Shown: in pieces, positions 3,569 to 35,248 of the stretch
Layout of the letters: the number at the start of each line of letters is the position of its first letter
Numbering within the stretch: position 1 is the stretch's first letter
Assembly: GCA_005888095.1 (NCBI GenBank)
Contig: VBKF01000140.1
Location: 4,602-68,601 of the forward strand
From: Deltaproteobacteria bacterium
GTDB taxonomy: Bacteria > Desulfobacterota > Binatia > DP-6
Length of the DNA: 64,000 nucleotides
Direction: 5' to 3'
Notes under the pieces: model-generated
What the model saw: the letters and a program-made list of their open reading frames with translations, nothing else
Database searches by the model: none
What the model was told of the DNA's origin: nothing
Position numbers and translations under genes: made by a program

Positions 3569-4738
3569 ATGCGGGAAATTTCCACCGACCCGCTGCGTAT
3601 GCACGACATCCAGGGTAGACCCACGGTCGCCGAGGTGAGCCTCGGGGCGCTGCGCACGAATCTCCGTGCCGCCCGGGACCTCGTCGGTCCGGGGGTGAAG
3701 GTGCTCGCTGTCGTCAAGGCCGACGGGTACGGCCACGGCGCGGTCGCGGCGGCGCGCGCCTTCGTCGAAGCGGGGGCCGCGGCGCTCGGCGTGTCCACGG
3801 TCGAGGAGGGCACGGAGCTCCGGCGGGCGGGCGTCCGGGGCCCGGTCGTGGTGCTCGGGGGCGCTTTTCCGGGCGAGGAGACCGCCGTCGTCGCGGGCGA
3901 CCTCGAGGTCGCCGTCTGGACGCGCGCCGCAGCCGAGGCGCTGGCGGCGGCGGCCCGGGCGGCCGGGCGGATGATCGGCATCCATATCAAGGTGGAGACC
4001 GGCATGACCCGGCTCGGCCTCGACCCGGCCGACGTCGGCGCCTTCGGTGCCGCCGTCCGCGAGCTGCCCGGTCTGTCCATGGCAGGGGTCTTCTCCCACT
4101 TCGCCTCGGCCGACGCGGTCGACACCGCCTCGGCCCGCGCCCAGGTCGAGCGCTTTCGCGCGGCCGTCGAGGCGCTCGCTGCCGCCGGCGTGCGCCCGGC
4201 CGAGGTGCACCTCGCGAACAGCGCCGCGGTCCTCTCCGCGCCCGCCGCGCACTTCACGATGGTACGGCCGGGGATCATGCTCTACGGCTACGCGCCGGCG
4301 CCCCACCTTCGCGCGCAGGCACGTTTGCTCCCCGCCATGCGGCTGCAGACCCGCATCGCCCAGACGCGACGGGTCGCCGCGGGGACGCCCGTCGGCTACG
4401 CCGGCACCTGGCTGGCCGCGCGGCCGAGCACGATCGCTGTCCTGCCGCTCGGCTACGCCGACGGTTACCACCGGCTCGCGTCCAACCGCGCCCAGGTGCT
4501 CGTCCGGGGCCGGCGCGCGCCGGTTGCAGGCCGGGTCTGCATGGACCACACGATGATCGATGTGACCGACGCGGGCGAGGTGAGGGCAGGGGACCCGGTC
4601 GTCCTCTTCGGGAGCCAGGATGGCGCTTCCATCTGGGCGGACGAGCTGGCCGGCTGGGTGGAGACCATCGCCTACGAGGTCCTGACCTCGGTCGGGAAGC
4701 GCGTGCCGCGCGTGTATGTGGACGACTTCGATGCCTAG
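3569..4738 (+). CDS. alr: alanine racemase
   Basis: VLAVVKADGYGHGAVAAARA pyridoxal-phosphate-lysine motif; in-frame ATG at 3569 (MREISTDPL...); the upstream part of track ORF 3185..4738 is arginine/serine-rich junk. Confidence 0.85.
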   Translation: MREISTDPLRMHDIQGRPTVAEVSLGALRTNLRAARDLVGPGVKVLAVVKADGYGHGAVAAARAFVEAGAAALGVSTVEEGTELRRAGVRGPVVVLGGAFPGEETAVVAGDLEVAVWTRAAAEALAAAARAAGRMIGIHIKVETGMTRLGLDPADVGAFGAAVRELPGLSMAGVFSHFASADAVDTASARAQVERFRAAVEALAAAGVRPAEVHLANSAAVLSAPAAHFTMVRPGIMLYGYAPAPHLRAQARLLPAMRLQTRIAQTRRVAAGTPVGYAGTWLAARPSTIAVLPLGYADGYHRLASNRAQVLVRGRRAPVAGRVCMDHTMIDVTDAGEVRAGDPVVLFGSQDGASIWADELAGWVETIAYEVLTSVGKRVPRVYVDDFDA

Positions 4739-27861: not shown

Positions 27862-28436
27862 CAGCCGAGCGTCCGCACCACGGCGAGCAGGTTTCGCGTG
27901 ATGCGGTGGGTGGCACCCCAGATGATGTGCTCGCCGACCGGATAGCAGTCGATCGGCACCTGCCGGCCCTCGAAGTCCCAGAGCTCGCGCCGCTCGGCGC
28001 CGGGTGCGTCCAGGAGGCGGAGCGGCACGGTGAAGACGGCCTCGACCTCGTCCCGGCAGAGCGTCCATCGGTAGGGGTGAGGGACGAGGCCGACGAACGG
28101 CGTGATCACGAACTCGGTCGCCATGGTCTCGATGTCGTCGAGCGGACCGAGCAGGCGAACGTCGGCGGGGTCGAGCCCGATCTCCTCGCGCGCCTCGCGC
28201 AGCGCCGTCGCCACCAGGTCGGCGTCGTCGGGATGGCAGCGGCCGCCCGGGAACGCGACCTGCCCCTGATGCTGGCGCAGCAGGCGGGAGCGGCGGGTGA
28301 AGAGGAGGTGCGGCTCCCCGTCGACGGGGAGGAGCGGGACCAGCACGGCGGCCGGCGTCTTCCCCGGCCGCACGAGCACGGCGCGCTCGCGCGCGGCGAG
28401 GGCCGGCGCGAGTGCCTCCGCGAGGCGTTCGGTCAT
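27861..28436 (-). CDS. NUDIX hydrolase, CoA pyrophosphatase-like
   Basis: Nudix box GQVAFPGGR...TALREAREEIGL; its stop overlaps the M23 start (ATGA). Confidence 0.75.
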   Translation of the reverse strand: MTERLAEALAPALAARERAVLVRPGKTPAAVLVPLLPVDGEPHLLFTRRSRLLRQHQGQVAFPGGRCHPDDADLVATALREAREEIGLDPADVRLLGPLDDIETMATEFVITPFVGLVPHPYRWTLCRDEVEAVFTVPLRLLDAPGAERRELWDFEGRQVPIDCYPVGEHIIWGATHRITRNLLAVVRTLG

Positions 28437-28479
28437 GCGTTGTCGGATGAGAGTAGCATCTGTGGTAGGAGTGAGGCCA

Positions 28480-29709
28480 ATGGGCGCCGGTCACGTGATC
28501 GTGCTGCGCTACCACGAGATCGCGCTCAAGGGGCGCAACCGGCCCTTCTTCGTGCGCCGGCTGGTGGACAACATCGTGCGCGCCACCGCCGGCCTGCCCG
28601 TCGGCGCGATCGCGCGCGCCTCGGCGCGCCTGCTGCTGCCGCTCGGGGACGTCACCGCCTGGCCGGAGGCGCGGGCGCGGCTCGCGCGCGTGTTCGGCCT
28701 CGCCAACCTCTCGCTCGCGCACGAGGTGGCCCTCGCCGGCGAGGCCGGCGCGGCCCTCGAGCGCCTCGGCGCGAGGATCGTCGAGCGGCTCGGCGGGGTG
28801 TCCGTGCCGAGCTTTCGCGTCCAGACCAAGCGGGCCGACAAGCGCTTCCCGTTCCCGTCGCCCGAGGTGAGCCGGCGGCTGGGGCACGTGATCCAGGCGG
28901 CCACCCGCTCGCGCGTCGACCTCGAGCACGCGGCGGTGACGGTGGCCGTCGACATCCTGCCCGGGCGCGCCTTCTTCTCGCTCGAGAAGGTGGCGGGCGC
29001 GGGCGGGCTGCCGGTCGGGACGAGCGGGCGGGTGCTGGCCCTCCTCTCGGGCGGCATCGACTCGCCCGTCGCCGCCTGGCGGATGATGCGGCGCGGGTGC
29101 GCCGTCGACTTCGTGCACTTCCACAGCGCGCCCTTCCACGATCGGACGAGCCAGGAGAAGGCGCGCCAGATCGCCGCCGAGCTCGTCCGCTGGGAGCTCG
29201 ACGCCGCGCTCCACCTGGTCGCCTTCGGCGAGGTTCAGCGCCAGATCGTCGCAGCGGTCGGGCGGCCGCTGCGCGTCGTCCTCTACCGGCGGATGATGCT
29301 CCGCATCGCCGAGGCGATCGGGCGGCCGGCAGGCGCCGAGGCGCTGGTGACGGGCGAGAGCCTCGGCCAGGTCGCGTCGCAGACGCTCCCCAATCTTGCG
29401 GTGATCGAGGCGGCGGTGCCGCTGCCGGTCCTCCGCCCGCTGATCGGCATGGACAAGGGCGAGATCTCCGCCGAGGCCGCGCGGCTCGGCACGTTCGAGA
29501 CCTCGGTCATCCCCGACCAGGACTGCTGCCAGCTCTTCGTGCCGCCACACCCGGCCACGCGGGCGCATCCCGAAGACGTGGCGGCGGCGGAGTCGCGGCT
29601 CGACGTCCCGGCGCTCGTCGCGCTCGGCGTGGCGGGCACCGAGCGCGTGCGGCTGTGCTGGCCCGCGGAACCGGCGGAGCCGCCGGCGCGCTCAGTCGTC
29701 GGCCGCTAG
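28480..29709 (+). CDS. thiI: tRNA 4-thiouridine(8) synthase
   Basis: THUMP domain plus PP-loop SGGIDSPVAAW; ATG at 28480 with a GGAGTGAGG Shine-Dalgarno. Confidence 0.8.
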   Translation: MGAGHVIVLRYHEIALKGRNRPFFVRRLVDNIVRATAGLPVGAIARASARLLLPLGDVTAWPEARARLARVFGLANLSLAHEVALAGEAGAALERLGARIVERLGGVSVPSFRVQTKRADKRFPFPSPEVSRRLGHVIQAATRSRVDLEHAAVTVAVDILPGRAFFSLEKVAGAGGLPVGTSGRVLALLSGGIDSPVAAWRMMRRGCAVDFVHFHSAPFHDRTSQEKARQIAAELVRWELDAALHLVAFGEVQRQIVAAVGRPLRVVLYRRMMLRIAEAIGRPAGAEALVTGESLGQVASQTLPNLAVIEAAVPLPVLRPLIGMDKGEISAEAARLGTFETSVIPDQDCCQLFVPPHPATRAHPEDVAAAESRLDVPALVALGVAGTERVRLCWPAEPAEPPARSVVGR

Positions 29710-30009
29710 CACGACGAAGATCCGGCGGATCGCCTCGCGGCCGAGGCGCGCGTTCAGACGTGAGCGGAGCTCGTGCTTCAGGAACTGCAGCTCCTGCATC
29801 CACTCGGAGCTGTCGACGGCGACGAGGAGCACGCCGCGCGCGAGCCGCCGCGGGCGCGCGTGGCGCGCGAGCGTCGCCCCGACCGCGGCATCCCACTCGC
29901 TCCACACCGCCCAGTCCTCGAGCCCCGCGCCCGTGGGCAGGCGGGCGAGCACCGTGCGCAGCACGTCGCCGAGGCGCGTGGGAACGCGCGCCGGCCGCGG
30001 TCGGGTCAC
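29692..30009 (-). CDS. DUF721/DciA-like protein
   Basis: LGDVLRTVLARL...LLVAVDSSEWMQELQFLKHELRSRLNARLG...IRRIFVVL resembles the DUF721 core; start trimmed to a GTG (the proline-rich N-terminus of the track ORF is doubtful). Confidence 0.5.
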   Translation of the reverse strand: MTRPRPARVPTRLGDVLRTVLARLPTGAGLEDWAVWSEWDAAVGATLARHARPRRLARGVLLVAVDSSEWMQELQFLKHELRSRLNARLGREAIRRIFVVLAADD

Positions 30010-30035
30010 GGCCGCGCCCCCTTGCAAAAAATCGC

Positions 30036-30064
30036 TTGACAACACAACATGTGGTGGTATATGC
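30036..30064 (+). promoter_or_regulatory. nrdJ promoter (TTGACA-16-TATATG) with an overlapping NrdR-box-like palindrome CACAACATGTGGTG
   Basis: Read directly; the imperfect palindrome centred on CATG resembles the NrdR box consensus (acaCwAtATaTwGtgt). Confidence 0.4.
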
Positions 30065-30095
30065 GCCTCCGCACACCATACCTGGGAGGGGCTTG

Positions 30096-32888
30096 ATGGC
30101 GAGGGAGCCGGTGGGCGAGGTGCTGGACGGGGGGCTGTCGGGGGCGGAGGCGGGGCCGGCACCGGGGCGCCGCGGCCTGGCGATCGCGCGGCAGTTCACC
30201 ACGGCGGGCACGAGCCCGTTCGACGAGGTCGAGTGGGAGATCCGTGCTGCCGTGATCCAGGGCGAGGGCGGCGAGACGGTCTTCGAGCAGCGTGACGTCG
30301 AGGTGCCGCGCCGCTGGTCGCAGCTTGCGACCAACGTCGTCGTCTCGAAATACTTCCGCGGGCCGCTGGGGAGCCCGGCCCGGGAGCGGAGCGTCCGCCA
30401 GCTCGTCGCCCGGGTGGTGAACACGATCGGCTCCTGGGGTGCGGAGCAGGGCTACTTCGCCACGCCCGACGACGCCCGCGCGTTCACCGACGAGCTGACG
30501 CACCTCCTGCTGCATCAGAAGCTCTCCTTCAACAGCCCGGTCTGGTTCAACGTCGGCGTCGAGGCGAAGCCGCAGTGCTCGGCCTGCTTCATCCTCTCGG
30601 TCGACGACACCATGGATTCGATCCTCGACTGGTATCGCAGGGAGGGCGTCATTTTCAAAGGCGGCTCGGGCTCGGGCGTGAACCTCTCGCGGCTCCGCTC
30701 GTCCAAGGAGCGCCTTGGCGGCGGCGGCACGGCGTCGGGGCCCGTGTCGTTCATGCGGGCGGCCGACGCCTCGGCCGGGGTCATCAAGTCCGGCGGGAAG
30801 ACGCGACGGGCGGCCAAGATGGTGGTCCTCAACGCCGACCACCCGGACATCGTGGAGTTCATCCGCTGCAAGGCCGAGGAGGAGCGCAAGGCGTGGGCGC
30901 TCATCGCCGCGGGCTACGACCGTTCCCTCGACGGGCCGGCATACGGCTCGATCTTCTTCCAGAACGCCAACAACTCCGTGCGGGTGACTGACGAGTTCAT
31001 GCGGGCGGCGCTCGAAGGGCGTCCGTGGAGCACCCGCTTCGTGACCAGCGGCGAGGTGGCGGAGACGATGCCGGCGCGCACCATCCTGCGCCTGATCGCC
31101 GAGGCCACCCACCAGTGCGGCGATCCGGGGATGCAGTTCGACACCACCATCAACGACTGGCACACCTGCCCGAACTCGGGGCGCATCAACGCGTCCAACC
31201 CGTGCTCGGAGTACATGCACCTCGACGACAGCGCCTGCAATCTCGCGAGCCTGAACCTCATGCAGTTCATCGACGCCGCGGGCGTCTTCGACGTCGCCGC
31301 CTTCCGGCACGCGGTCGACATCGCCATCACCGCGCAGGACATCGTCATCGACCGCTCGAGCTATCCGACGTCCGAGATCGCGGCCAACGCGCATGCCTAC
31401 CGCGAGCTCGGCCTCGGCTACGCCAATCTGGGCGCGCTCCTGATGTCGCTCGGCCTGCCCTACGACTCGGACGCGGGCCGGGAGTACGCGGGAGCGCTGA
31501 CCGCGCTCATGTGCGGCGAGGCCTACCTGCAGTCGACGCGTCTGGCGGCCGCGCTCGGGCCGTACGAGGGCTTCGCGCGCAACCGCGAGCCGCAGCTGCG
31601 CGTCGTCGACAAGCACCGCGCGCACGCCCACCGGCTCGACCCGGCGCTGGTGCCCCTCGACCTCCTCGCGGCCGCGCGCGAGGTCTGGGACACGGGGCTC
31701 GCGGAAGCGCGCGCGCACGGCGTGCGCAACTCGCAGGTGACCGTGCTCGCGCCCACCGGCACGATCGCCTTCATGATGGACTGCGACACGACGGGGGTGG
31801 AGCCCGACATCGCGCTCGTCAAGTACAAGAAGCTGGTCGGCGGCGGCGTGCTGAAGATCGTCAACACGACGGTGCCGCGGGCGCTTCGCCGCCTCGGCTA
31901 CGACTCGCGCGAGGTGCAGGAGATCGTCGAGTACATTGACGAGCACGAGACGATCGAGGGGGCCCAGGCGCTCCGGCCCGAGCACCTCCCGGTCTTCGAC
32001 TGCGCCTTCCGGCCGGCGCGCGGCAGCCGGTCGATCCATCCGCTCGGCCACATCCGGATGATGGCCGCGGTGCAGCCGTTCATCTCGGGGGCGATCTCGA
32101 AGACGATCAACGTCCCCGAGCAGGCGACCGTGGAAGACATCGAGGAGGCGTACGTCGAGTCCTGGCGCCTCGGCTTGAAGGCGGTCGCGATCTACCGCGA
32201 CGGCTGCAAGAAGACGCAGCCGCTCAACACCGTGAAGCCCGGCGCGCAGCGCGCCGACGCCGACAGGGGCGAGGTGAAGGCGGCGGCACCGGAGCCGGCC
32301 AGGCGGATCACGGGAGGGGCGGAGGGGAAGCCGGAGCCGGTCAGGCGGCGGCTTCCAACCAACCGACATGCCCTCTGCCACAAGTTCGACATCGCCGGCC
32401 ACGAGGGCTACATCCACGTCGGCTTCCACGAGGACGGCACGCCCGGCGAGATCTTCATCAAGATGGCCAAGGAGGGAAGCACGATCTCCGGCCTGATGGA
32501 TACGATCGGCGTCCTCACCTCGATGGCGCTGCAGTACGGCGTGCCGCTCGAGGTGCTGGTTTCCAAGTTCAGCCACGTGCGCTTCGAGCCGTCGGGCTTC
32601 ACCAAGAACCCGGACATCCCGATCGCGAAGTCTCTCATCGACTACATCTTCCGCTTCCTCGGCACTCGGTTTCTGGGCGCCGAGCAGCGCGTGGCGATCG
32701 GCCTGGCCGAGCGCCCCGAGCCGGCGCCGGTGACGACGCCGGCGGTGACGGCGACCTCCACCCGGGCCCCGCTCGCCTTCAGCCCGCAGGCGGATGCGCC
32801 GAGCTGTCCGGACTGCGGGTCGCTGATGATCCGCAACGGCTCCTGTTACAAGTGCCTCAACTGCGGCGCGACGAGCGGCTGCTCGTAG
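30096..32888 (+). CDS. nrdJ: vitamin B12-dependent ribonucleotide reductase (class II)
   Basis: ATG at 30096 with a GGGAGGG Shine-Dalgarno; ~930 aa with class II RNR motifs (NPCSEY..., GGSGSGVNLSRLR) and a C-terminal CxxC...CxxC zinc ribbon. Confidence 0.85.
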   Translation: MAREPVGEVLDGGLSGAEAGPAPGRRGLAIARQFTTAGTSPFDEVEWEIRAAVIQGEGGETVFEQRDVEVPRRWSQLATNVVVSKYFRGPLGSPARERSVRQLVARVVNTIGSWGAEQGYFATPDDARAFTDELTHLLLHQKLSFNSPVWFNVGVEAKPQCSACFILSVDDTMDSILDWYRREGVIFKGGSGSGVNLSRLRSSKERLGGGGTASGPVSFMRAADASAGVIKSGGKTRRAAKMVVLNADHPDIVEFIRCKAEEERKAWALIAAGYDRSLDGPAYGSIFFQNANNSVRVTDEFMRAALEGRPWSTRFVTSGEVAETMPARTILRLIAEATHQCGDPGMQFDTTINDWHTCPNSGRINASNPCSEYMHLDDSACNLASLNLMQFIDAAGVFDVAAFRHAVDIAITAQDIVIDRSSYPTSEIAANAHAYRELGLGYANLGALLMSLGLPYDSDAGREYAGALTALMCGEAYLQSTRLAAALGPYEGFARNREPQLRVVDKHRAHAHRLDPALVPLDLLAAAREVWDTGLAEARAHGVRNSQVTVLAPTGTIAFMMDCDTTGVEPDIALVKYKKLVGGGVLKIVNTTVPRALRRLGYDSREVQEIVEYIDEHETIEGAQALRPEHLPVFDCAFRPARGSRSIHPLGHIRMMAAVQPFISGAISKTINVPEQATVEDIEEAYVESWRLGLKAVAIYRDGCKKTQPLNTVKPGAQRADADRGEVKAAAPEPARRITGGAEGKPEPVRRRLPTNRHALCHKFDIAGHEGYIHVGFHEDGTPGEIFIKMAKEGSTISGLMDTIGVLTSMALQYGVPLEVLVSKFSHVRFEPSGFTKNPDIPIAKSLIDYIFRFLGTRFLGAEQRVAIGLAERPEPAPVTTPAVTATSTRAPLAFSPQADAPSCPDCGSLMIRNGSCYKCLNCGATSGCS

Positions 32889-33012
32889 CCGCGGCGGCTT
32901 CGATGTGTGGAGGCGGCGGCGGAGTGGTGGGGCGGTAGGCCTCCTCGGCGGGGTGGTGGTCCGCGGGGCGGACGCGGGGCGCCTTTCGAGGCGCCCCGCG
33001 GCGGCGGGCGGC

Positions 33013-33040
33013 TTGACAGCGTGAGAACCGCTTCTATAAG
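33013..33040 (+). promoter_or_regulatory. putative gcvH-like gene promoter (TTGACA-16-TATAAG)
   Basis: Read directly, ~55 nt upstream of the ATG. Confidence 0.35.
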
Positions 33041-33093
33041 AGGCCGCAGCCGGCCGGATTCGAGCCCGCACGCCCGTCGACGAGGAGCCACCG

Positions 33094-33480
33094 ATGGCGG
33101 AAACCCTGAAGTTCACCGAGGACCACCTGTGGGTGCGCGTGGAGGGGAACCGCGCGCACCTTGGGATCTCGGAGTACGGTCAGGCCGACCTCGGCGAGGT
33201 AATCGCGGTGGAGCTGCCCGACGTCGGCGATGAGCTCGAGAAGGGCGAGCCCTTCGGCGAGATCGAGTCCGTGCGCACCGTCTCCGAGCTGCTCGCGCCG
33301 CTGAGCGGCACGGTCGTCGCGACCAACACCGAGCTCGACGACCACCCGGCGATCGTCAACGAGGATCCCTACCACGAGGGCTGGCTCGTGGAGGTCGAGA
33401 TGACGGACGAGGCGGAGCTCGAGGACCTGATGGATGCCGACGAGTACGAAGAGTACGCCGCCGGCGAAGAGGAGAGCTGA
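33094..33480 (+). CDS. gcvH: glycine-cleavage H-protein-like lipoyl-domain protein with Arg in place of the lipoyl-Lys
   Basis: 128 aa, alignable over its length with E. coli GcvH; the conserved ESVK lipoylation site reads ESVR (codon cgc). Confidence 0.75.
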   Translation: MAETLKFTEDHLWVRVEGNRAHLGISEYGQADLGEVIAVELPDVGDELEKGEPFGEIESVRTVSELLAPLSGTVVATNTELDDHPAIVNEDPYHEGWLVEVEMTDEAELEDLMDADEYEEYAAGEEES

Positions 33481-33483
33481 GGC

Positions 33484-33795
33484 CTAGCGTCGCTGGCGGC
33501 CGTCGCGCGACGAGCTGCGGAAGCGATAGACGATCTCGCCAGGCTTGACGAGCCCGAGCTGCCGGCGGGCGAGCTCCTCGAGGTAGAGGTCGTCGTCCTT
33601 GAGTCGCGCGAGGTCCTCGCGGAGCCGCGCGTTCTCTTCGAGCAGCGCGAACGCCGTCCGCCCCAGGTCCTGCCGCTCGGCGCGCAGCCGGAGGAGATGC
33701 GGGACGCCGTGCTCGCCGATCAGAGCCGACACCGTCACCGTGGCGATGGCCAGCAGCAGCACCGCGCTCAGCACTCGCCCGCTCGCCATCCGCAC
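33484..33795 (-). CDS. ftsB: septum formation initiator FtsB/DivIC-family protein
   Basis: One transmembrane helix followed by a coiled coil (RLRAERQDLGRTAFALLEENARLREDLARLKDD) and a C-terminal ...GEIVYRF. Confidence 0.65.
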   Translation of the reverse strand: MRMASGRVLSAVLLLAIATVTVSALIGEHGVPHLLRLRAERQDLGRTAFALLEENARLREDLARLKDDDLYLEELARRQLGLVKPGEIVYRFRSSSRDGRQRR

Positions 33796-33964
33796 CGCGA
33801 AGAGTGGTAACGGAAAGCGTGCACGGAGGCAACGGCGAAGAAGTAGAACGTCCTGCTACTCCCCGCTGTCCGAGAGAGGGGAACGCCATTCTAGGGTCGG
33901 GATGATCGAGCGCGGACGCCGAGCGCCGGTTTAAAAAAAAATTTCCAAAACGGCGGTCGTCTAT

Positions 33965-33993
33965 TGACTCTTGCGCCGACGCACCTCTATACT
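33965..33993 (+). promoter_or_regulatory. near-consensus sigma70 promoter TTGACT-17-TATACT preceded by an A/T-rich UP-like tract (TTTAAAAAAAAATTTCCAAAA)
   Basis: Read directly; an A9 run is extremely unusual in this ~70% GC sequence. Confidence 0.55.
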
Positions 33994-34080
33994 TCGTGCC
34001 GTGGTGGTTGAGGTGTGGAGTGGCTTCTCGCCTGAGAGAGGGACGGAAGGGAACGTTCTCGATTCCAACAGGAGGTAACC

Positions 34081-34173
34081 ATGGCGGCAAAGAAGAAGGC
34101 GAAGAAGGCGAAGAAGAAGAGCAAGGCGAAGAAAAAGGCCCCCTCGAAGAAGAAGGGGTCGAAGAAGAAGTAG
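34081..34173 (+). CDS. 30-aa lysine/alanine-rich micro-protein (MAAKKKAKKAKKKSKAKKKAPSKKKGSKKK)
   Basis: AGGAGG Shine-Dalgarno 6 nt before the ATG; strong promoter ~85 nt upstream; intrinsic terminator ~100 nt downstream; the overlapping E/G-rich frame in the track (33996..34217) has no Shine-Dalgarno. Confidence 0.55.
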   Translation: MAAKKKAKKAKKKSKAKKKAPSKKKGSKKK

Positions 34174-34270
34174 TGAGCGCGTTGGCTGCATCCGATCCGC
34201 AGTTGCTAGGCACGTAAGACCCAAGGATTTCATCTCAGGCGAGAATGGGCCCGTTGGCCGGGCCCACGGA

Positions 34271-34301
34271 AAGGCCCTTCGAGTCACGAAGGGCCTTTTT
34301 C
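34271..34301 (+). terminator. rho-independent terminator (11-bp perfect stem AAGGCCCTTCG/CGAAGGGCCTT, 5-nt loop, T5 tail)
   Basis: Read directly; preceded by a second GC hairpin GGGCCCG-TTGGC-CGGGCCC at ~34248..34266. Confidence 0.7.
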
Positions 34302-34324
34302 GTTGGAGCGCCAAAGGCTCGCCC

Positions 34325-35110
34325 ATGCTGAGCGCCGACATCGTCCGCCCCGAGAGCGCGCGCTACACGACGTCGCTCCTCTGCATTCCCGGCCTCTGGG
34401 CGGGGCCTGACGTCTGGCGCGCCTTCGCGGGCTACCTGGCGCACCGGGGCTGGGAGAGCCACCTGCTCGACGTGCGGGCGCTCGATGCGGGCGTCGCGGA
34501 GCGAGCGGCCGCCGTGGCGGCGCATGCGGCGGCGCTGCCCACCCCGCCCGTGCTGCTCGGCCACGACCTGGGAAGCCTGGTCGCCCTCGCCGCCGCGGCG
34601 CGCACCCGGACCGCCGCCGTGGTGCTCCTGGCCCCGCTCGTGCCGGGCAGCGCCCCGGCCCGTGCCCTCGCGCTCCGGCCGGGGACCTTCCTGCAGCTCC
34701 TGCTCGCGCGGCCGGTGCCGCCGCCGGGCGTCCGCGCGGCGGCGCCGCTGTGCGGCGAGCTCGCGGCGCCGCTCGGCCGCGCCGTCGTCGCGAGCCTCGC
34801 CCCGGAGAGCCCGCGCGTGCTGCGCGAGGTGGTGCGGCCGCGAACGCCGCCGGCCGCCGTCGCCGGCGTCCCCGCGCTCGTCGTCACGGGCGACCGCGAC
34901 CCGCTGCTGCCCGCGCCGGCGGCTGCCGCCTTCGCCCGCGCTCTCGGCGCGGAGCATCAGTCGCTCGACGGCGCCGGTCACTGGCTGTTCGCGGGTCCCG
35001 CCTGGCAGCGCGGCGTCGGGCTCGTGCACCGCTGGATCATCCAGCGGCTGGGCGAGCCGCTGCTCGAGCGCTACGCCGAGGCGATGACCGAGCGCGAGGA
35101 GGACCGCTGA
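34325..35110 (+). CDS. alpha/beta-hydrolase fold protein
   Basis: HDLGS nucleophile elbow and a C-terminal ...GAGHWLF catalytic His region. Confidence 0.6.
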   Translation: MLSADIVRPESARYTTSLLCIPGLWAGPDVWRAFAGYLAHRGWESHLLDVRALDAGVAERAAAVAAHAAALPTPPVLLGHDLGSLVALAAAARTRTAAVVLLAPLVPGSAPARALALRPGTFLQLLLARPVPPPGVRAAAPLCGELAAPLGRAVVASLAPESPRVLREVVRPRTPPAAVAGVPALVVTGDRDPLLPAPAAAAFARALGAEHQSLDGAGHWLFAGPAWQRGVGLVHRWIIQRLGEPLLERYAEAMTEREEDR

Positions 35111-35248
35111 CTCGCTAGGCTAGTCAGGAGCTCGACTCGAGATGGAATCTCCGCGCGCGCCGCGCGCGCGGCCGAGCGCAGCGAGCGGGGAGTGAGGACC
35201 CGGCGGGCTCCGCCCGCCGGGGCGAGGGGCGGGAAGCCCCTCGCTGAT

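Follow-up and report, generated by a model that had tools for sequence, protein, structure and literature searches.

The stretch of contig VBKF01000140.1 analysed here, 64 kb long and referred to as the window (72% GC), carries on its + strand a small gene for a lysine-rich micro-protein, the micro-gene, which occupies positions 33930-34300 (all coordinates are window positions). The micro-gene is a self-contained expression unit, as the original prediction, a short note made from the letters of the window, had described it: a UP-like A/T tract, a promoter, a Shine-Dalgarno (SD) sequence, a micro-open reading frame (micro-ORF) of 30 codons and an intrinsic terminator follow one another. There is very little doubt that the micro-ORF is a real translated gene. 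Comparison of related loci suggests, as the best explanation of its occurrence, that it is a vertically inherited monocistronic gene of Binatia, a candidate class of uncultured soil bacteria in the candidate phylum Binatota, and that it represents a new, unnamed micro-protein family with an unusual, conserved mRNA architecture. The explanation that best accounts for the locus as a whole, and towards which we lean, is that the product is a free polycationic peptide, a free-standing tail, made from an mRNA that is clamped 5' to 3'.

The peptide, MAAKKKAKKAKKKSKAKKKAPSKKKGSKKK, contains 18 lysines in 30 residues (60%), specified by 17 AAG codons and one AAA codon, and has a net charge of about +18. 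The probability of drawing at least 18 lysines in 29 random codons of the same composition is about 4e-30, and the micro-ORF, extending from the ATG at 34081 to the TAG at 34173, is the sole K-rich small ORF in the window. It is 82% purine, and its RNA is predicted to have little internal structure. In 24 distinct sequences, the proportions of synonymous and nonsynonymous differences (pS and pN) in the Lys frame are 0.47 and 0.09, respectively (pN/pS 0.19), whereas the ratios in the other two sense frames are 1.0-1.2. One of the latter is the E/G-rich overlapping frame of the six-frame track, which is rejected as a gene at a ratio of 1.0; the original prediction was right to prefer the Lys frame to it. 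Two antisense frames give ratios of 1.2-1.9. The value of 0.31 in the remaining antisense frame is a matter of geometry because this frame has the same wobble positions as the Lys frame. The substitution pattern demonstrates purifying selection on the Lys frame, so that the predicted 30-codon, 60% lysine ORF stands and is selected at the amino-acid level.

The length of the peptide varies between 21 and 32 residues in different loci (for example, MAMRKKASKAKKKAPAKKKAAKKKK, MAAKKGKAKKKAPAKKKAAKKKK and MAAKKKAKKATKKKSKAKKKAPAKKKGAKKKK), and every insertion or deletion is in frame. The variants share the core S[KR]AKKKAP[AS]KKK. A C-terminal core of about 17 residues is constant in length and sequence, and the N-terminal half differs by up to 9 residues. 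At locus L004 the peptide is 100% identical to that of the window, with identities of 84% for GcvH, 58% for DivIC, 49% for the hydrolase and 37% for the PAPS reductase encoded nearby. By alignment, none of the neighbouring genes compared is as well conserved as the micro-ORF. A separate case is locus L025 (a 1888 bp contig of a 'Thermodesulfobacteriota' metagenome-assembled genome, MAG), where a deletion in the 1535-1600 region has left a truncated peptide, MAKKKAKKAKKKSKAKKKSKR, that lacks the AP core, and the elements of the untranslated regions (UTRs) are all retained. This deletion is either an assembly error or the mark of a degenerate copy.

Gene calls for the exact peptide of the window exist in 479 metagenome assembly blocks. 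The gene order in these blocks is class II ribonucleotide reductase, GcvH, DivIC/FtsB (minus strand), micro-ORF, alpha/beta hydrolase and PAPS reductase. Two further samples of loci were collected. A DNA pattern that combined two conserved blocks of the 3' UTR matched 17 species-representative genomes, 16 of which are MAGs labelled Candidatus Binatia, 'delta proteobacterium' or 'Thermodesulfobacteriota', all with the micro-ORF and the same synteny. The seventeenth, an Alphaproteobacteria MAG (L030), lacks the ORF and was discarded as a chance match. Since the pattern contained two of the 3' motifs, their invariance in the 16 genome loci is by construction and only independently found loci count in this respect. 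Such loci, nine in number, were reached via homologues of the hydrolase that are 43-56% identical. All nine have the UP-like tract or the -35 and -10 hexamers (most have both), the 5' arm of the helix described below, the SD-ATG pair, a K-rich ORF, GCTAGGCACGT, CTCAGGCGAG and the terminator. Synteny, which the original prediction had put forward as a check, is conserved in every Binatia locus examined, the micro-gene lying between ftsB/divIC and the hydrolase gene.

The A/T tract TTTAAAAAAAAATTTCCAAAA (33930-33950), which contains A9T3, ends 13 nt 5' of the -35 hexamer. It provides the sole 20-mer with at least 16 A/T and the sole A/T homopolymer of at least 7 nt in the window, in agreement with the A9-containing, UP-like tract that had been predicted. 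Its AAAAAAAAATTTCCAAAAC(G) portion is almost unvarying in loci sampled independently of the tract, which is also kept in the more distant loci L065 and L139. The -35 hexamer TTGACT (33964-33969) is kept in all aligned loci, and the -10 hexamer TATACT (33988-33993) has the variants TATAAC (L021) and TATAGT (L027). The promoter, with 10 of 12 matches in the promoter scan, is the only promoter-like site in the 2.2 kb from 33000 to 35200, where shuffles lead one to expect 0.1. The perfect SD sequence AGGAGG lies at 34070-34075, and GGAGG is followed by ATG at constant spacing in 24/24 distinct loci as well as in L032-L035 and L156. Both hexamers and the SD sequence are thus as predicted, and three distances need small corrections: the promoter spacer is 18 nt rather than 17, the SD lies 5 nt rather than 6 before the ATG, and the leader is about 80 nt rather than 85 if transcription starts some 6 nt past the -10 hexamer.

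At the 3' end, the two hairpins and T5 run of the prediction were found as a 7-bp G+C hairpin (34247-34265) and the intrinsic terminator (34270-34300), a stem-loop AAAGGCCCUUCG-AGUCA-CGAAGGGCCUUU leading into U5. The terminator can be recognised in the sequence itself as well as in the folds of the single sequence and of the alignment. It is absent from the + strand output of the terminator scan, presumably because its stem takes up part of the T run. In the alignment, 97.5% of the cells of its stem are paired and two pairs show compensatory changes (UA/CG and CG/GC). The aligned loci thus show promoter, UP-like tract, SD, start, stop and terminator all to be conserved.

The A-tract/T-tract/AAAA arrangement 5' of a near-consensus -35 is reminiscent of the UP element of Escherichia coli rrnB P1. 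The E. coli UP-element consensus is situated about 8 nt nearer the -35 than the tract of the micro-gene. Unlike rrnB P1, the tract probably lies between divergent promoters, and its contact with the alpha subunit of RNA polymerase is putative. The second promoter of this pair is suggested by the block GAACGCCATTCTAGGG (33882-33897), which is kept in all aligned loci. Read on the minus strand it is CCCTAGAATGGCGTTC, which has a TAGAAT box resembling a -10 hexamer some 90 nt upstream of the start of divIC/ftsB at 33795. The block is probably the divergent ftsB promoter, which would put the A/T tract between two back-to-back promoters, both of which it may serve.

The alignment revealed three features of the mRNA that the original prediction did not contain: a helix between the 5' and 3' UTRs, an invariant motif in the 3' UTR and a G/U-rich 5' end. 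The 5' arm of the helix, UUCUCGCCUGAGA (34025-34037), is the perfect complement of the 3' arm, UCUCAGGCGAGAA (34233-34245). None of 300 shuffles of the 3' UTR matched this helix in a longest-helix test. It is present in the RNAalifold consensus, 98.8% of its cells are paired in 20 sequences, and eight of 12 pairs are unvarying within Binatia. Each of the 19 one-sided changes found in the arms is a transition that keeps a G-U pair (A-U/G-U, with a 10:10 split at one pair, U-A to U-G, and C-G to U-G), and one pair runs U-A/U-G/C-G across the sequences. These changes point to pairing of RNA rather than to an inverted repeat in DNA. The possibility of a DNA inverted repeat or MITE was rejected on the basis of the 19/19 G-U-compatible transitions together with the single-copy syntenic locus.

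Several more distant relatives from the metagenome scan have different complementary arms at the same positions: CUUGCCUG/CAGGCAAG in L111, UCUGAGGG/CCCUCAGA in L065, AGGGAAGGGA/UCCCUUCCCU in L139 and CGCCUCG/CGAGGCG in L054. The arms of L093 are those of Binatia. Taken together, the differing arms amount to covariation. The comparative evidence as a whole thus establishes, at the level of sequence, a conserved helix of 12-13 bp that joins the 5' UTR and the 3' UTR. The helix encloses the SD and the ORF, leaves the SD itself free, and abuts the 7-bp hairpin, which begins 1 nt 3' of the 3' arm, and the terminator. The hairpin (91% of cells paired, two pairs changed on both sides) could stack on the long-range helix. 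The predicted transcript begins with a G/U-rich leader (33999-34024, assuming the start given above) that contains repeated GG tracts and SD-like GGUGG and GAGGU words. The stretch of 25-33 nt that precedes the 5' arm has a mean composition of 58% G and 25% U over 24 loci, each of which fits a pattern of four G2 tracts; the G/U-rich character is also found in L065, L139, L093 and L111. It is possible that this 5' end is a ribosome standby site or forms a two-tetrad G-quadruplex.

A helix that is formed by the ends of a transcript and encloses its coding part recalls the fold-back (fbi) of hok mRNA and the processing stalks of stable RNAs. Classical RNase III substrates are longer than a helix of 12-13 bp, even one with a 7-bp hairpin stacked on it. 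The likeness to hok raises the question of a type I toxin-like module, in which a 5'-3' fold-back would silence a toxic ORF, either the polycation itself or an antisense hydrophobic FFFAFF peptide. The long-range pairing around a small ORF and the lowish pN/pS (0.31) of the wobble-sharing antisense frame are consistent with such a module. However, the micro-gene occupies a single syntenic locus across the class and is neither mobile nor multicopy, the helix leaves the SD unsequestered, and, unlike in hok, the peptide is not hydrophobic (60% Lys) and no antisense RNA was found; the scan of 33000-35200 gave no minus-strand promoter-like site. The FFFAFF ORF was rejected as a gene: it has no conserved start (its first start lies anywhere between -50 and +127 when counted from the Lys stop), no SD, and a length that ranges from 34 to 129 amino acids (aa). 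A toxin module is therefore extremely improbable.

The invariant motif m1, GCUAGGCACGUA (34205-34216), is 12 nt long and is predicted to be unpaired. The sequence GCTAGGCACGT is exact in all the loci that were found without using the motif (L001-L014, L032-L035 and L156). L065 and L139 retain only the CUAGGC of m1. No partner of m1 (complement UACGUGCCUAGC) was found in the transcript, the 64-kb window or about 35 Binatia loci. The motif is the main reason to consider that RNA is the main product, or that the locus has a dual function, with the transcript or a 3' fragment containing GCUAGGCACGUA, the two hairpins and the U-tail acting as a base-pairing small RNA (sRNA) or a protein sponge and with translation being secondary. 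In the independently found loci m1 and the helix arms are more conserved than the synonymous sites of the ORF (pS 0.47), and the 3' anatomy, a motif predicted to be unpaired followed by a hairpin and a terminator, is that of an sRNA. On the other hand, it is the amino-acid sequence that is under selection, a perfect SD and ATG are conserved, and the distant relatives retain the peptide and the helix rather than the full motif. Neither an Rfam family nor, in the window and the Binatia loci named above, a complementary target was matched. We consider an RNA product improbable. The Rfam 15 search gave no match at gathering score in the whole window and only sub-threshold, chance-level matches in 33400-34800; the window contains no tRNAs.

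The original prediction had stated that the peptide matches no recognised family, and this holds: searches with E values up to 10 gave no families in Pfam and NCBIfam and no matches among PDB chains, solved ribosomes included. A phmmer search against 1.84 billion representative proteins also returned no matches, which is not evidence of absence because the query is short and biased in composition and the result is uninformative. For the same reason the other negative protein searches carry little weight. The exact peptide is not among the members of the protein-cluster collection, and no account of such a gene was found in the literature on lysine-rich small proteins, on the motif string or on Binatia. 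A likeness of another kind emerged when metagenomes were scanned for DNA encoding the 9-mer KKKAPAKKK, which yielded at least 120 loci. Most of the 120 matches listed are terminal tails on larger proteins. Those confirmed by Pfam are uL22, uS2, bL17, uS9, HU, Ku and trigger factor; several more were judged by eye to be topoisomerase I. The nature of these carriers indicates that proteins acting on DNA or ribosomes carry KKKAPAKKK as a generic appendage.

Tails of this composition are known from several bacteria. The C-terminal domain of mycobacterial HupB is a K/A/P-rich, 'histone H1-like' tail. Nucleic-acid-binding tails of the same type are described in Chlamydia Hc2 (PMC2848022), Pseudomonas AlgP (PMC9239181) and Streptomyces DdbA (PMC3643593). 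The peptide shares with them its composition, the KKxAPAKK-type units and an identical 9-mer, KKKAPAKKK, and its binding mode is presumed to be likewise electrostatic and disordered. Unlike these tails, which sit on a folded domain or belong to a repeat protein of more than 100 aa, it is a separate product of 21-32 aa with its own promoter, SD and terminator. The known kind would thus be the lysine-rich nucleic-acid-binding tail, and what appears to be new is its free-standing form. By analogy with the fused tails, we give about equal weight to the presence and the absence of a polyanion-binding function of the free tail.

The original prediction had compared the peptide with tiny basic ribosomal proteins. 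One of them, bS22, is described in PMC10081302. The peptide resembles bS22, bL37 and bTHX of bacteria and eL41 of eukaryotes and archaea in its size (these have about 24-33 residues), its very high positive charge and the ease with which annotation overlooks it. It could accordingly be proposed that the micro-gene encodes a stoichiometric, lineage-specific ribosomal protein that fits into a pocket of ribosomal RNA (rRNA), with the helix and/or GCUAGGCACGUA mimicking the rRNA site for autoregulation, a mode of control found in ribosomal-protein operons. Such a role would suit the UP-like promoter tract and strong SD, the C-terminal core of about 17 residues fixed in length and sequence, the conserved structured UTR elements that are otherwise unexplained, and the occurrence of the K/A/P motif as a tail on four ribosomal proteins and trigger factor. 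However, NCBIfam, Pfam and the PDB chains, including those of solved ribosomes, show no homology to bS22, eL41 or any other ribosomal protein. To our knowledge, the known tiny ribosomal proteins contain both Arg and aromatic residues. The peptide of the window, with its Lys/Ala-only character, has neither, and the N-terminal half of the family varies by up to 9 residues. Moreover, the gene is outside ribosomal-protein operons and does not adjoin ribosomal or translation genes, being flanked by ftsB/divIC and the hydrolase gene or, in L054 and L111, situated after enolase. On balance a ribosomal protein is rather unlikely, albeit the least unlikely of the alternatives considered.

The gene downstream, at 34325-35110 on the + strand, starts 24 nt past the terminator and encodes a protein of the alpha/beta-hydrolase fold (Pfam Abhydrolase_6) that matches generic Abhydrolase families only. 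The original prediction had not noted that the link to it is fixed: the hydrolase gene lies on the same strand beside the 3' motifs of the micro-gene throughout the Binatia loci as well as in L065 and L139, where it persists despite different upstream genes. There is no space for a promoter of its own, which suggests transcription by read-through. Most members of the hydrolase family have Asp at the nucleophile elbow (GHDxG, e.g. GHDLG), and one clade (P0090, P0095 and P0098) has Gly (GHGAG). The His of a GHW motif (position 219) and an almost invariant C-terminal motif, HRWLVQRLGEPLLE, are conserved. Beyond HRWLVQRLGEPLLE, every member closes with a short acidic tail, such as EREEDR or DEDEGEDEG. 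The Gly/Asp variation at the elbow implies that catalysis may not be conserved. As a lead, an acidic-tailed and possibly non-catalytic hydrolase could be a physical partner of the polycation.

The his, thr, pheA and trp leaders likewise combine a short ORF crowded with one codon, an intrinsic terminator and, behind it, a gene on the same strand. The micro-ORF might, by analogy, be the leader peptide of an attenuator in which the speed of the ribosome over the 18 Lys codons senses charged tRNA-Lys and controls read-through into the hydrolase gene, whose ATG at 34325 leaves no room for a promoter and whose adjacency is kept in L065 and L139. Unlike the known leaders, the micro-gene has no conserved alternative, antiterminator pairing: the best partners of the left arm of the terminator in 24 loci are 5-8 bp long and occur at scattered positions, and there is none in the alignment fold. 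The stop codon lies about 95 nt ahead of the terminator, and the arms of the helix are clear of both the ORF and the terminator. The conservation of the non-Lys A-P-[AS] residues, a downstream gene that encodes a generic alpha/beta hydrolase unrelated to the lysine pathway, and the existence of the micro-gene without the hydrolase gene in L054 and L111 also speak against attenuation, which we regard as very improbable.

The free-standing tail, by comparison, would work as follows. The unit would yield large amounts of a polycation of 21-32 residues, about 60% lysine and probably disordered, as the free counterpart of the K/A/P-rich KKKAPAKKK tail that is fused elsewhere to HU, Ku, trigger factor and ribosomal proteins. 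As its likeness to the fused tails suggests, the peptide would bind rRNA or ribosomes, DNA or polyphosphate electrostatically, serving as a diffusible counter-ion or condensing factor. The 5'-3' helix, stacked on the adjacent hairpin, would close the short purine-rich mRNA and protect it from nucleases and/or provide a site for feedback, the G/U-rich 5' end with its SD-like words could act as a ribosome standby site, and the downstream hydrolase-like gene would probably be expressed by terminator read-through.

A number of points weigh against this explanation. High expression is deduced from the expression signals and nucleic-acid or ribosome binding from the composition of the peptide. The peptide is of low complexity, and its likeness to tails may be convergent; that likeness is, besides, silent on which polyanion is bound. 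A free tail leaves m1 unexplained, and the constant pairing with a hydrolase-like gene may be a sign that the role is more specific. With regard to the helix, covariation within Binatia is thin, eight of the 12 pairs being constant, and the arm pairs of the relatives are singly marginal, each being reached by 3-30 of 300 shuffles. Finally, the 16 genome loci were selected by a pattern that included two of the 3' motifs.

Stand-alone micro-ORFs similar to that of the window, none of which had been reported in the original prediction, exist in other lineages as well. Fourteen of the 120 KKKAPAKKK matches listed are SD-preceded micro-ORFs of 18-36 codons. Some of these belong to relatives of the Binatia gene: L093 has the same GcvH-DivIC synteny, the micro-ORFs of L111 and L054 come after enolase, and L065 and L139 share the UP tract and are followed by the hydrolase gene. 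The L054 micro-ORF (minus strand; 3811-3906 on the reverse complement) has GcvH and DivIC nearby and its own 5'-3' arms. The others (groups A and B) differ in GC content and neighbours and are without the Binatia UTR motifs or the 5'-3' helix. An intrinsic terminator follows MPSKKKAPAKKKATKKKK (L048 493-549(+), L079 and L147 3145-3201(+)), MKNATKKAAAKKKAPAKKKK and MKSATKKAAPKKKAPAKKKK (L049 8134-8196(+), L129, L066 1375-1437(+) and L146 3933-3995(+)) and MKNATKKKAPAKKKAAPKKKK (L083 and L117). The MKN/MKS group has its own TTGAC-type promoter. The micro-ORFs of L066 and L146 encode an identical peptide and differ by eight synonymous changes only.

These relatives suggest a general phenomenon. 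A bolder proposal, which we put forward very tentatively and regard as doubtful, is that polylysine-type free micro-proteins are a widespread, overlooked class of abundant bacterial polycations, each a 'tail without a body' that would serve as a condenser in the manner of linker histones or protamines, or else as a new component of the ribosome. In Binatia, the mRNA clamp and GCUAGGCACGUA would sense the free peptide and so control its synthesis, and the hydrolase-like neighbour with its acidic tail would partner or chaperone it; the micro-ORFs of other soil lineages (MPSKKKAPAKKKATKKKK, MKNATKKAAAKKKAPAKKKK and others) would be analogues.

Proteins below about 30 residues are systematically lost. 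The original prediction that standard callers would miss or mis-frame the gene is largely borne out, by eight of the nine loci reached via the hydrolase, although the exact peptide was called in the 479 assembly blocks. In the public gene calls of the nine loci, the micro-ORF is correct in one (L014), a spurious minus-strand or other-frame ORF is called instead in four (L012, L032, L033 and L156), and nothing is called in four (L011, L013, L034 and L035). Trypsin-based proteomics would cut the peptide into single residues and dipeptides. The micro-gene has the strongest expression signals in the 64 kb and is spread across a candidate class often met with in soils. Should the peptide prove abundant, the ribosomes, nucleoid or polyphosphate of Binatia would have in it a major cation that has gone unrecognised. 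The mRNA of the micro-gene provides a clear natural case of conserved pairing between the 5' and 3' UTRs in bacteria, one that is open to mutational testing.

Several minor observations were made in the course of the analysis. A further example of the stand-alone K-rich micro-ORFs (18-31 codons) in contigs of other GC content, each with an intrinsic terminator behind it, is MATAKKKTTAKKPMMKKPAAKAKKKAPAKKK. On the 3' side of group-B micro-ORFs, in L146 (about 4040-4165) and L083, a terminator-like unit (GGCCCCG...CGGGGCC, a T run and about 40 nt) is present in two or three tandem copies. A family of small proteins (L047 248-673, L039, L064, L128 and L154; also L136, L073 and L149) combines a strongly acidic N-terminal half, MSFDDPTLY...EEEEEEEE, with a K/A/P-rich basic C-terminal half, and has only sub-threshold Pfam matches (DUF4604 and YL1). 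The hydrolase homologue P0061 of L156 (contig Ga0066903_100006146) is labelled 'Candidatus Nitrosopolaris sp.', an archaeon. The contig has the full Binatia synteny and the micro-gene MAAKKKAKKAKKKSKAKKKAPAKKKKKK and looks mis-binned. In the window, two long ORFs, 27906-32888 (+) of 1660 aa and 30006-33116 (-) of 1036 aa, overlap around the ribonucleotide reductase gene. The reductase-like sequence starts about half-way into the 1660-aa frame, and the 1036-aa frame is Arg/Ala/Pro-rich. Both frames look like high-GC artefacts, so that long open frames in this DNA are not evidence of genes, and they illustrate the way in which callers overwrite the micro-ORF.

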